Source of the DNA: a virus
Taxonomy: Duplodnaviria > Caudoviricetes
Length of the DNA stretch: 64,000 nt
Virus record (IMG/VR): IMGVR_UViG_3300024344_003081
Reading direction: 5' to 3' (one strand)
Part shown: piece by piece, positions 6,651 through 46,445 of the stretch
Layout: the number at the start of each line of letters is the position of its first letter
Numbering within the stretch: position 1 is the first letter of the stretch
The notes under the pieces: generated by a model
What the model was told of the DNA's origin: nothing
Databases searched by the model: none
What the model saw: only the letters and a program-made list of their open reading frames with translations
Made by a program: the position numbers and the translations under genes

Positions 6651-7485
6651 TAAAATTATCACGAATATTATTGATCAAGAAGCACCTGATCAAACAGTTG
6701 CAGTATTGATGTCTGGAGGAACAGATAGTCTAACAGTTGCCGCGGCCGCTCATAGATTGAATAAAAAATTAAATTGCTATACATTTAGAGTTGATGGAAA
6801 AGATTCTGATGATAGCATATATGCAGAAAAAGCATGTAAGCATTTTGGTTGGAATTTTAAACTTATAGATGTTCCAGTTGACAATATTGAAAATGATTTT
6901 TTTACTTTGATTAAAACATATGAATGTAAAAAGAAAACTCATGTAGAATGTACATTTCCTTTTTTATATGTTTATCCTCATATAAAAGAGAAATATATCT
7001 TAACTGGTTGGGCCGCTGATGGTTATTATGGGGTGAGCAAAAAAGCAAATATACATTTCAAACACACCAAAGAATTGATGGATGAATTCAGACGGGATTA
7101 CTTTGGTAAATTAGATGAGACTACACAAAAATTTATTCCAGGAAATCCTGTAGGAGTGAAACAACAAATGTTGTTGGCAGAATCAATAGATTCTATTTTA
7201 GTTGCTCCATACATTGATAAGACGGTCTGGGACTGGATGATACAGTATGATTGGGATTTTTTCAATAAACCATATCAGAAAGCTCCGCTATTTGATGCAT
7301 TTCCCGAATTGCTTGAAATAAAGAGAAGAAATCATCTGAATTTACAGTTAGCCGCAGGAATACCAAATTATTTTGAGAAATTGCTTGACAATAAGGAAAT
7401 TAATATCTATAATAGAAGCAGAATAATGGATTTAGTCAGAGATTGGAAAACTACAACTACAAATATAGAGGAATTTTTTGTATGA
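6643..7485 (+). CDS. Asparagine-synthase-like PP-loop ATP pyrophosphatase (synthetase domain only)
   Basis: VLMSGGTDS PP-loop; LTGWAADGYYG resembles the LSGEGADELFG motif of AsnB; no glutaminase domain. Confidence 0.75.
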   Translation: MIDKIITNIIDQEAPDQTVAVLMSGGTDSLTVAAAAHRLNKKLNCYTFRVDGKDSDDSIYAEKACKHFGWNFKLIDVPVDNIENDFFTLIKTYECKKKTHVECTFPFLYVYPHIKEKYILTGWAADGYYGVSKKANIHFKHTKELMDEFRRDYFGKLDETTQKFIPGNPVGVKQQMLLAESIDSILVAPYIDKTVWDWMIQYDWDFFNKPYQKAPLFDAFPELLEIKRRNHLNLQLAAGIPNYFEKLLDNKEINIYNRSRIMDLVRDWKTTTTNIEEFFV

Positions 7486-18342: not shown

Positions 18343-18866
18343 TGAATGGAACATTTGAATTACAAGAAAATTTAGGAATTTTTTGTTTGTATGATGATGT
18401 TGAAGTACCATCATTAGCAACTGAAAAGTCGGCATGTTTTGACTTGAAAGCATATCTTAAATCGCATACAAAAGTACTTGCATATAATCATTATAATCAT
18501 AAAAAAGAAATTCTCATAACAAATAACTCTTTATCAATGTTACCACATTGGAGATATCTAATACCCACAGGAATAATTTTTGATATTCCTAGAGGATATT
18601 ATGTTAAAGTTCATCCTCGTTCTGGTAATGCATTGAAAAAAGGTTTAATTACTGCAAATAATGTGGGGATTGTTGATGAAGATTATGTAGAAGAATGTAA
18701 TTGTATTATGAGAAATGTATCACATACTCCTATTCAAATTAATCATGGTGATAGAATTGCACAAGCAGAATTGCGTAAAGTAGAAAATTTCAACATCAAA
18801 CTTGTACGTAAACGACCAAAACAAAAAACAGATAGAGATGGTGGATTTGGCTCTACTGGACAATGA
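18342..18866 (+). CDS. dut: Trimeric dUTPase
   Basis: ACFDL, PRSG, GIVDEDY, RIAQ, RDGGFGSTG. Confidence 0.92.
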   Translation: MNGTFELQENLGIFCLYDDVEVPSLATEKSACFDLKAYLKSHTKVLAYNHYNHKKEILITNNSLSMLPHWRYLIPTGIIFDIPRGYYVKVHPRSGNALKKGLITANNVGIVDEDYVEECNCIMRNVSHTPIQINHGDRIAQAELRKVENFNIKLVRKRPKQKTDRDGGFGSTGQ

Positions 18867-19417
18867 TTATTGATTTAAAAGAATTAATAGATGATGATTT
18901 AATTTTTAATTATTTTTCTCATAAAGTTGAAAATGCCCAAAGTCTTACATCATCTTTAAAAACTATTCCAATTAAAAAAGACGGCTATAGAGGATATGAT
19001 TTTTATTGTGATTATCTATCAATGATTTTTCATTTAAAAATTACACCTTTTGTTTCAAAAATTCTAAATAAAGAATTAATACCAACTTTTTGTTTTACAA
19101 GAATGTATTTTGGGGGAAGTAAATTAGATTTTCATACAGATAGGGAAGCATGTGAAATTACTGTATCTCATTGTCATTATGGTAGTCCATGGAAAATATA
19201 TGTTTTAGAAGATGAATTTGTAACAGAAAAAGGAGTAAGTCTTTGTTATGAGGGAGCAAAAAAATCTCATGGTAGAGTTGCTCCAACATTAAATAAAGCA
19301 TTATATTCTTTTTATCATTGGGTTGAAAAAGGTGGAAAATATGATGAATTGAAGTATGATGAATCAGAAAAAATAGAAAAAATTTATAGTCAAACCCTTG
19401 ACAAATTATATATATAA
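18863..19417 (+). CDS. 2OG-Fe(II) oxygenase-like protein
   Basis: HxD motif FHTDREACEITVS and distal HGR. Confidence 0.6.
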   Translation: MIIDLKELIDDDLIFNYFSHKVENAQSLTSSLKTIPIKKDGYRGYDFYCDYLSMIFHLKITPFVSKILNKELIPTFCFTRMYFGGSKLDFHTDREACEITVSHCHYGSPWKIYVLEDEFVTEKGVSLCYEGAKKSHGRVAPTLNKALYSFYHWVEKGGKYDELKYDESEKIEKIYSQTLDKLYI

Positions 19418-19426
19418 GAGTATAAT
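19398..19426 (+). promoter_or_regulatory. sigma70-type promoter of hsp20
   Basis: Perfect TTGACA-17 nt-TATAAT. Confidence 0.85.
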
Positions 19427-19434
19427 TGATCTTA

Positions 19435-19532
19435 TGAGAATTAAAATGAAATTCTCATTGTTGCAATCAGCAACATCCCTCTGGCTTTATTGCAGAGGAT
19501 TAATTAGTTAATCTGCCTATAAAGGAGATAAT
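19435..19532 (+). promoter_or_regulatory. ROSE-like RNA thermometer candidate in the hsp20 5' UTR
   Basis: Four consecutive hairpins; the last pairs UCU(G)CCU with the AGGAGA Shine-Dalgarno, leaving a bulged G. Confidence 0.6.
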
Positions 19533-20000
19533 ATGTATTTAGTACCGAAATCTATCGAAGAACTCAATCGCCAACTATCAATGTCCGTAGGGTTTGATTC
19601 TTTTTTTAATCGTCTATTTGATGATGCTTTTTTAGCGAATAGTTCACAGGGGTATCCTCCTTATAATATTCGCAAAGTGACCGATACAGAGTATGCTATC
19701 GAAATTGCCTTAGCAGGATTTACAAAAGACGACCTAGATATAGAACTTGCAGATGGAACACTTACAATAAAAACAGTTCCAAACGAAAAACAAAATGATG
19801 AAAGTTATTTACATCATGGAATCGCCAAGCGAGTCTTTACCCGAAGATTTAACCTTGCTGATGATGTCATTGTGAAGGGTGCAGATTTGTTCAATGGCTT
19901 GCTTAAAGTTGAGCTGGAGCGAGTTATTCCTGAGGAAAAAAGACCTCGCAAAATTGATATAGATGATGGCGTGAAAGTGGTTGATCACAAAGTTGTGTAA
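19533..20000 (+). CDS. Small heat-shock protein Hsp20 (IbpA-like)
   Basis: GYPPYNI, EIALAGF, YLHHGIAKR, GLLKVELERVIPEEKRPRKI. Confidence 0.95.
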   Translation: MYLVPKSIEELNRQLSMSVGFDSFFNRLFDDAFLANSSQGYPPYNIRKVTDTEYAIEIALAGFTKDDLDIELADGTLTIKTVPNEKQNDESYLHHGIAKRVFTRRFNLADDVIVKGADLFNGLLKVELERVIPEEKRPRKIDIDDGVKVVDHKVV

Positions 20001-20022
20001 AAAAATAACAACTTAAACAAAT

Positions 20023-20056
20023 AAAGGGGGGTCATGATTATGACCTCCTTTTTTTT
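20023..20056 (+). terminator. Intrinsic terminator after hsp20
   Basis: AAAGGGGGGTCAT-GATT-ATGACCTCCTTTT plus T tract. Confidence 0.8.
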
Positions 20057-20069
20057 AGGATTAAATACA

Positions 20070-20534
20070 ATGAAACTCACCAAAAATTTTTCATTCAAAG
20101 AAATGACTTTTTCTGATACTGCTATTAGAAAAAATATAGACAATACTCCAGGTTTAAAAGAAGCAATAAATTTGACAAATGTTTGTAATAATATTTTGCA
20201 ACCTGTAAGAGATCATTTTGGAAAAGTAGTAAGAATTAATTCTGGATATAGATCAGTTAAATTGTGTTTAGCAGTAGGAAGTTCCGCAAAATCTCAACAT
20301 GCAAAAGGAGAGGCCGCGGATTTTGAAATTAATGGTATATCGAATCATGATTTAGCAAAATGGGTTTATAATAATTTAAATTATGATCAAATTATTTTAG
20401 AATACTACGATCCAAAAGGTGATCCCAATAGTGGTTGGGTTCATTGTTCTTATAAAGCTGATGGAACAGGTCGTAAGCAAGCTCTAATTATTAATAAAAA
20501 CACAAAGGGCAAATATCTCCCATGGAAGCCATAG
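20070..20534 (+). CDS. Peptidase M15A (possible endolysin)
   Basis: SGYRS, SQHAKGEAAD, WVH zinc ligands; ATG 20070 preferred because 20034 lies inside the terminator. Confidence 0.85.
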   Translation: MKLTKNFSFKEMTFSDTAIRKNIDNTPGLKEAINLTNVCNNILQPVRDHFGKVVRINSGYRSVKLCLAVGSSAKSQHAKGEAADFEINGISNHDLAKWVYNNLNYDQIILEYYDPKGDPNSGWVHCSYKADGTGRKQALIINKNTKGKYLPWKP

Positions 20535-46104: not shown

Positions 46105-46445
46105 TATCGATGATACTGTAGAGTAGCATTTAAGACATCGGTGCGATTCCGATCAGCTCCACCAAAGGAACATCAATGAGTAGTGCAGATATGGCCATAT
46201 TAGTAGTATTAATTGTAATTGGCATAATTATGACGGGAACTTATTTTTATTTTGGTGGGTGATTCTTTGGAGGGGCTGTAATAGAATTCGATTGGATGTG
46301 ATTATACAGAGGAGATCATCTTGACAGATGTAAAATGTCATTTAAATTAATCGCAAATAATAACGATTATTATTCAGCACAAGTGGCATTAGCCGCTTAA
46401 TCGCTGGCGGGCTTATGATTGTGCCTTGGAACAGAAACAATCAGA
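46105..46445 (+). ncRNA. ssrA: Circularly permuted (two-piece) tmRNA: acceptor piece ~46105-46164, coding piece 46272-~46445, tag ANNNDYYSAQVALAA at 46353-46400
   Basis: T-arm ATCGG-TGCGATT-CCGAT and CAGCTCC-A-CCA (to 46164) lie upstream of GGGGCTG (46272); acceptor stem has the G3:U70 alanine pair; tag ends LAA*; outer boundaries approximate. Confidence 0.9.
46176..46262 (+). CDS. 28-aa single-TM peptide inside the tmRNA intervening segment
   Basis: AAGGAA RBS; MSSADMAILVVLIVIGIIMTGTYFYFGG*. Confidence 0.55.
   Translation: MSSADMAILVVLIVIGIIMTGTYFYFGG

Follow-up and report, generated by a model that had tools for sequence, protein, structure and literature searches.

The hsp20 gene of an uncultured marine T4-like phage is preceded by a leader of ~100 nt that likely acts in cis as a ROSE-kind gate on translation, inherited along with the IbpA-type small heat-shock gene. 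The phage is represented by a 64,000-nucleotide stretch of DNA (IMG/VR record IMGVR_UViG_3300024344_003081), referred to here as the window, which has a GC content of 31.7% and had no match in a DNA search of cultured phages. Few auxiliary genes are as widespread in ocean phages, cyanophages and pelagiphages included, as small heat-shock genes of the hsp20 type. A ROSE-type gate over the Shine-Dalgarno (SD) sequence was kept in almost all phage hsp20 copies examined, which suggests that these phages regulate this chaperone post-transcriptionally and independently of the host heat-shock sigma factor. No description of a ROSE-like leader on any phage hsp20 was found in the literature, and papers on cyanophage small heat-shock proteins made no mention of a leader. 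The window contributes to this picture its four hairpins and shifted bulge, its consensus sigma-70 promoter, the conserved RNA-binding residues of IbpA, and RNA contigs.

ROSE-like thermometers lie in leaders of small heat-shock genes and comprise two to four hairpins, the last of which pairs the SD imperfectly with a U(U/C)GCU sequence and has a predicted bulged G (PMC11182007, PMC11342760, PMC3669281). The original prediction for the window described four successive hairpins behind a perfect sigma-70 promoter, with the SD held in the last one. This observation was confirmed. All coordinates claimed for the promoter and the four hairpins hold in the sequence (Table 1), and the minimum free energy (MFE) fold of positions 19432 to 19545 gives exactly these four hairpins. 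The fold has an energy of −29.8 kcal/mol, compared to a mean of −18.0 kcal/mol for shuffled sequences (z = −3.9), and only 1 of 200 shuffles folded as well. As in ROSE-like 5' untranslated regions, the leader (19432 to 19532) sits between the promoter and the Hsp20 open reading frame (ORF), and its SD lies inside the fourth of four hairpins.

Table 1. Features of the hsp20 transcription unit, in coordinates of the window
Feature	Position	Strand	Details
Sigma-70-type promoter	19398-19426	+	TTGACA 19398-19403, 17-nt spacer, TATAAT 19421-19426; 12/12 match
Predicted transcription start	19432-19434	+	6-8 nt past the -10 box
Hairpin 1	19434-19458	+	5'-terminal; 19435-19442 pairs with 19450-19457; MFE fold extends to 19434/19458
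Hairpin 2	19459-19475	+	19459-19464 with 19470-19475; GUUGC/GCAAC stem, variable loop
Hairpin 3	19478-19498	+	19478-19483 with 19493-19498; MFE fold
Hairpin 4	19511-19529	+	AUCU[G]CCU with AGGAGAU; A19511-U19514 and C19516-U19518 pair with A19523-U19529; loop 19519-19522
Shine-Dalgarno AGGAG	19523-19527	+	5 nt 5' of the start codon; invariant in the clade
hsp20 gene	19533-20000	+	Start ATG 19533; 155 aa; Pfam HSP20 PF00011, E 1.3e-17; IbpA-type
Intrinsic-terminator-like hairpin and eight T	20027-20056	+	From sequence; aligns with the terminator portion of the L20_leader model; RNA contigs stop at 20031

The SD hairpin carries the central evidence for gating. G19515 was the single bulged G in both the MFE and centroid folds, and UCU[G]CCU pairs with the SD, upholding the claim of an SD sequestered in the final hairpin opposite a bulged G. 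The bulge sits one base 5' of its canonical ROSE position, and the anti-SD of the window, UCUGCCU, does not literally match the U(U/C)GCU of ROSE-like elements. The proposal of a U(U/C)GCU-type anti-SD was correct for sister clades and for most phage and bacterial IbpA-type genes but not for the window itself, which has UGCCU.

In isolation, hairpin 4 had a predicted stability of −5.0 kcal/mol at 37°C, compared to −8.8 kcal/mol without the bulge, indicating that the helix is marginal and that the bulge makes it so. The SD hairpin of Salmonella ibpA gave −4.6 kcal/mol in the same computation. At 15°C, hairpin 4 was predicted to reach −8.4 kcal/mol, making it firmer at sea temperatures. When SD accessibility was calculated from 4 to 60°C in ViennaRNA, the window stayed closed; because the Salmonella ibpA leader used as a control also stayed closed up to 50°C, this melting profile has no discriminating power. 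Short phage leaders with arbitrary 5' ends produced erratic melting profiles. Folding, together with the conservation described below, establishes the closed structure predicted at the SD.

Conservation within the window's clade was assessed by protein-guided scans of viral and metagenome contigs, which recovered ~40 loci encoding Hsp20 proteins 70 to 100% identical to that of the window and carrying 20 distinct leaders. Folded singly, all 20 distinct leaders had the same hairpin order and an SD hairpin with a bulged G. Six close sequences, whose structure was checked by hand, served to build a covariance model, and all 20 leaders were aligned to it (alignment A6). This replaced an earlier attempt using MAFFT and RNAalifold on raw leaders, which misaligned hairpins 1 and 3 and introduced a spurious long-range helix. 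In A6, 93.3% of cells were standard pairs, compared to 34 to 52% in slid controls, although A6 was fitted to the structure of the model and its counts lean toward that structure. Nine pairs were changed on both sides, while shuffles averaged 3.9 and none of 500 reached 9. Covariation among phage hsp20 leaders, which had been put forward as a check on the original prediction, was observed.

The 5' arm of hairpin 3 (CUCU, 19478 to 19483) can also pair with GGAG of the SD (19523 to 19527). This CUCU/GGAG pairing is the long-range helix picked by RNAalifold on the poor alignment, and it may be a product of chance or an alternative closed state.

The four hairpins differed in how they varied among relatives. 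All seven pairs of hairpin 1 were changed on both sides in A6. The stem of hairpin 2 was invariant except in one locus (L046), where GUGGC/GCCAC is a compensatory change. Hairpin 3 had one double change (C-G to U-A) and several G-U changes, and clean deletions have removed it from five loci (L007, L016, L129, L135, and L136), which stem from different samples, indicating that it is dispensable. Hairpin 4 had no compensatory changes within the clade in A6, because the SD it pairs with is invariant there. Loss of the SD-occluding stem in relatives had been named at the outset, along with temperature-independent reporter translation, as an outcome that would speak against a thermometer; the stem was present in every relative examined.

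Two registers of hairpin 4 were seen, UCU[G]CCU in the window's subclade and UCUC[G]CU in all other subclades, with an equal number of pairs and one bulged G in both. Sister clades, whose Hsp20 proteins are 78 to 86% identical to that of the window, have UCUC[G]CU-loop-AGGAGA. No UGCCU form was found beyond the window's own subclade, and this confinement marks it as the derived state. We conclude that the window's leader descends from a canonical ROSE-like leader and probably works like a ROSE element, and it is filed here as a variant.

A profile scan of viral contigs added 80 more hsp20 loci at 44 to 80% identity. The canonical arrangement, T[TC]GCT followed by a loop of 3 to 8 nt and AGGA, ending 6 to 11 nt before the start codon, was present in 67 distinct viral hsp20 leaders. 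The pair just outside this motif covaries among the 67 leaders (U-A in 22, C-G in 23, and A-U in 6). With four further leaders included, the outer position was paired in 54 of 71, compared to 32.8 ± 2.9 in shuffles, and 0 of 20,000 shuffles reached 54. Cultured phages carrying the canonical motif include the pelagiphages Mosig, HTVC008M, and HTVC115P, the Methylophilales phage Melnitz, and the cyanophages P-SSM4 and Syn33. Among bacteria, 74 of 77 IbpA-like loci had the motif, mostly in alphaproteobacteria, plus SAR11 and SAR86.

By its distribution in sequence, the motif is specific to hsp20. Across 133 kb of phage loci, it stood at 19 of 64 AGGAG-ATG sites, of which 18 preceded hsp20 and 1 preceded dnaK. 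The canonical motif was absent from all 27 AGGAG-ATG sites in the window, with its hsp20 site carrying the UGCCU variant. The single dnaK site, the only motif outside hsp20 in the 133 kb, is in an IMG/VR contig where a full-length dnaK lies just upstream of hsp20 (L027, positions 440 to 2440); its leader has two hairpins, with UCUUGCU-loop-AGGAG before the start codon. A second recurring element is the hairpin preceding the SD hairpin, which in 48 of 71 leaders had a conserved YGCC-loop-GGG top with a bulged G of its own. Examples lie 30 to 50 nt before the hsp20 start in L051, L062, L083, L143, and others, and at positions 1098 to 1171 of L142. The YGCC-loop-GGG hairpin is also found in Salmonella, SAR11, and SAR86 ibpA leaders and is absent from the window's clade.

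This pattern of conservation bears on a simpler explanation, in which the hairpins only stabilize the mRNA and set a fixed low rate of translation, with nothing being sensed. Such a role would fit a hairpin 1 that begins within 1 to 3 nt of the predicted transcription start, the dispensability of hairpin 3, and the proposal that 5' hairpins of ROSE-like leaders stabilize ibpA mRNA (PMC3669281). However, it leaves unexplained why hsp20 in particular should retain an anti-SD containing one bulged G. The anti-SD is retained across phages and bacteria even though the proteins are only 42 to 55% identical, and the bulge is retained even when shifted by one base, which a stabilizer alone does not account for. 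Stabilization as the sole function is accordingly considered improbable, and the leader is treated below as a ROSE-kind gate.

Membership in a described RNA family was examined using Infernal. In the comparison with Rfam ROSE models that had been suggested as a check, RF00435, RF01832, and RF02523 gave no match in the window at an E value of ≤10 (126-nt search) or at the gathering score. In the same run, the Salmonella ibpA leader used as a positive control scored 95.2 bits on ROSE_2. Subthreshold ROSE matches of 24 to 34 bits fell exactly on leaders of relatives or of other phage hsp20 genes, including 34 bits on ROSE_3 for Melnitz, 25 to 27 bits for three more, and 24 bits on ROSE_2 for L025. 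Given a shifted bulge found only in its own subclade and no Rfam ROSE match, the leader is read as a new variant rather than as a filed member of these families.

Weak cmscan matches over positions 19443 to 19535 raised the possibility of a ligand-binding riboswitch akin to preQ1-II (RF01054; 26.3 bits, gathering score 47) or the freshwater-2 motif (19.5 bits, gathering score 49.9), for the latter of which nothing was found in the literature. Both scores are far below gathering, and the preQ1-II alignment has nonpairs in place of a third helix. Neither model matched four relatives (L007, L013, L017, and L022), hairpin 3, which aligns to P2 of preQ1-II, is deleted in five, and the downstream hsp20 has no link to queuosine. 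With scores below gathering, no retention in relatives, and a deletable hairpin 3, both identities were rejected, and a riboswitch of this type is regarded as extremely unlikely.

A ROSE-kind gate can be compared to several characterized systems. The enterobacterial ibpA thermometer (ROSE_2, RF01832) is likewise a 5' untranslated region of an IbpA-type gene with several hairpins, and its last hairpin likewise pairs AGGAG with an anti-SD containing one bulged G, at a predicted stability similar to that of the window (−4.6 versus −5.0 kcal/mol). The Salmonella leader has UCUCGCU, as in the window's sister clades, whereas in the UGCCU of the window the bulge lies one base closer to the 5' end. 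Other differences are the score on ROSE_2 (95 bits for the Salmonella leader versus no match for the window), upstream hairpins that are unrelated in sequence, the lack of a YGCC-loop-GGG hairpin in the window's clade, and a promoter of the sigma-70 type in the window rather than the sigma-32 type of enterobacterial ibpA.

The short thermometers of Pseudomonas ibpA (ROSE_3, RF02523) resemble the window in having the SD in the 3' hairpin opposite an anti-SD motif, an unpaired AUG, and a stable 5' hairpin that is not heat responsive (PMC3669281). Among Rfam models, ROSE_3 was also the one that other phage hsp20 leaders matched best, at 25 to 34 bits. In contrast to ROSE_3, the window has four hairpins rather than two, a derived anti-SD, and no match to the model. 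ROSE1 of Bradyrhizobium japonicum (RF00435) also has four hairpins and precedes a small heat-shock gene, and its last hairpin places a bulged G across from the SD (PMC3669281, PMC11342760). It differs in that cmscan found no match to it in the window, its AUG is inside a hairpin while that of the window is predicted to be free, and the window's element is viral and stands behind a consensus sigma-70 promoter. A 2024 count of phage RNA thermometers included only lambda cIII, SPbeta blyA (fourU), and a gut-phage sigma-70 gene (fourU) (PMC11182007). These are also phage leader structures gating a ribosome-binding site, but they are neither of the ROSE type nor on chaperone genes.

The promoter was described correctly as perfect, matching the consensus at 12 of 12 positions, and it is of the sigma-70 type rather than a heat-shock type, in agreement with the claim that no heat-shock sigma promoter is needed. 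It overlaps the 3' end of the upstream ORF and is kept in all relatives of the window's clade. Strong sigma-70-type sites (at least 11 of 12 matches) numbered 13 on the plus strand and 3 on the minus strand of the window, compared to ~3.1 per strand in shuffles. Perfect TTGACA-N16/17-TATAAT promoters begin at positions 7385, 14191, 19398, and 25972, all on the plus strand. Judged by this excess of plus-strand sites over the ~3 expected, the 13 sites look like phage early promoters and the hsp20 promoter looks like one of them. In many other phages, two-hairpin hsp20 leaders are preceded by the late-type box TATAAATA.

A 184-amino-acid ORF with no Pfam match (18863 to 19417, plus strand) separates the dUTPase gene from the hsp20 promoter in the window. 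In three relatives (L007, L010, and L016), the promoter directly follows the dUTPase stop codon, indicating that promoter, leader, and hsp20 keep together as a unit while the neighbor varies.

Contigs from four marine metatranscriptome runs in three studies were compared to positions 19000 to 20400 of the window. They span only ~19432/19458 to 19979/20031; positions 19000 to 19431 and 20032 to 20099 were uncovered, which is not equivalent to absence. The longest contig (X16) has a 5' end equivalent to ~19432 to 19434, where its sequence is that of hairpin 1 in a sister variant, and its 3' end falls within the terminator stem. RNA ends cannot be proven from contigs, and their fit to a monocistronic mRNA containing the whole leader is a weak hint.

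In the mechanism favored here, host RNA polymerase with sigma-70 would start a monocistronic mRNA of ~600 nt near position 19433, as suggested by the promoter and, weakly, by the RNA contigs. Hairpins 1 to 3 would act as stable scaffolds, and by analogy, hairpin 1 at the extreme 5' end probably protects the mRNA. Hairpin 4 would pair the SD with the anti-SD in a helix weakened by one bulged G, keeping the ribosome-binding site closed in the ground state, and opening of this marginal helix would raise translation. In the window's lineage, the canonical U(U/C)GCU of the sister clades is replaced by a derived UGCCU whose bulge is displaced by one base. As for the signal, heat could open the helix, as it does in bacterial ROSE elements, and release of phage Hsp20 from the leader through titration by unfolded proteins probably could as well.

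This second signal has a precedent in bacteria. IbpA proteins of Escherichia coli, Cedecea, and Vibrio repress their own ROSE-type leaders, which requires R93 (irreplaceable), cationic residues at positions 97 and 98, and an aromatic residue at position 34 (PMC10474464). The window's Hsp20 shares 44% identity with Salmonella IbpA and carries Y, R, R, and R at the equivalents of Y34, R93, R97, and K98, the residues expected of a self-regulating protein. IbpB has F, Q, L, and S at the same positions and none of the three cationic residues. In 80 phage Hsp20 proteins, position 93 was R in 80 of 80, position 34 was Y in 79 of 80, and position 97 was R or K in 80 of 80, and position 98 was not cationic in most.

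These residues suggest by analogy that the leader could chiefly be an operator of phage Hsp20, with the protein binding its own 5' untranslated region and repressing translation until titrated by unfolded proteins. In that case, what the element senses during infection would be protein aggregation rather than temperature, a role compatible with a ROSE-kind gate. The precedent on ROSE-type leaders (PMC10474464), the retention in the window of all four leader-binding residues of IbpA alongside a ROSE-type structured leader, and the R93 equivalent in every phage protein compared all argue in this direction, as does the presence of the mRNA in marine metatranscriptomes despite a hairpin predicted to be very stable at ocean temperatures. 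However, R93 is also general in alpha- and gammaproteobacterial IbpAs and may therefore be kept for other reasons, most phage proteins do not have a cationic residue at position 98, and self-repression has been demonstrated only for gammaproteobacterial IbpAs. An operator as the chief role is a real possibility, though not the one that we would expect.

Taken as a signal for opening a ROSE-kind gate, self-repression by the chaperone would, on the IbpA analogy, be equally live compared to heat. Temperature changes in the ocean are small, so heat may not be the natural signal, and the case for it may be weakened further by the origin of the contigs in seawater and the −8.4 kcal/mol predicted for the hairpin at 15°C. 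More speculatively, the ROSE fold of phage hsp20 genes might serve in the sea as the operator of a virus-encoded proteostasis feedback loop rather than as a thermometer, with UGCCU as a retuned set point. If so, Hsp20 would leave the leader when virion or host proteins aggregate, and chaperone synthesis would track demand at constant temperature.

For such questions, the ~100-nt leader provides a handle for testing why phages carry hsp20. The window's lineage is a natural experiment in its own right, in which the bulged G has shifted by one base and hairpin 3 is missing from some relatives.

The host of the phage was considered from a contig of 161 kb (L156, PAAV01000055.1), which is a phage contig identical to the window over hsp20 and is binned in a Chloroflexota metagenome-assembled genome (MAG). 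A Chloroflexota host was rejected. Relatives in that lineage have a GC content of 51 to 67%, and their hsp20 genes are not of the IbpA type and do not have the motif; no hsp20 was found in those searched of the other four genomes of the MAG's genus. Compared to the 31.7% of the window, the GC content of these relatives suggests that PAAV01000055.1 is probably misbinned.

Other structured RNAs were encountered during these searches. In one viral contig (L047, positions 98 to 303), a manA RNA motif lies upstream of hsp20 at 50.3 bits, below the gathering score of 55.2. In the window, the only Rfam family above gathering was a permuted (two-piece) tmRNA (RF04321), at positions 46109 to 46400 on the plus strand with a score of 94.3 bits.
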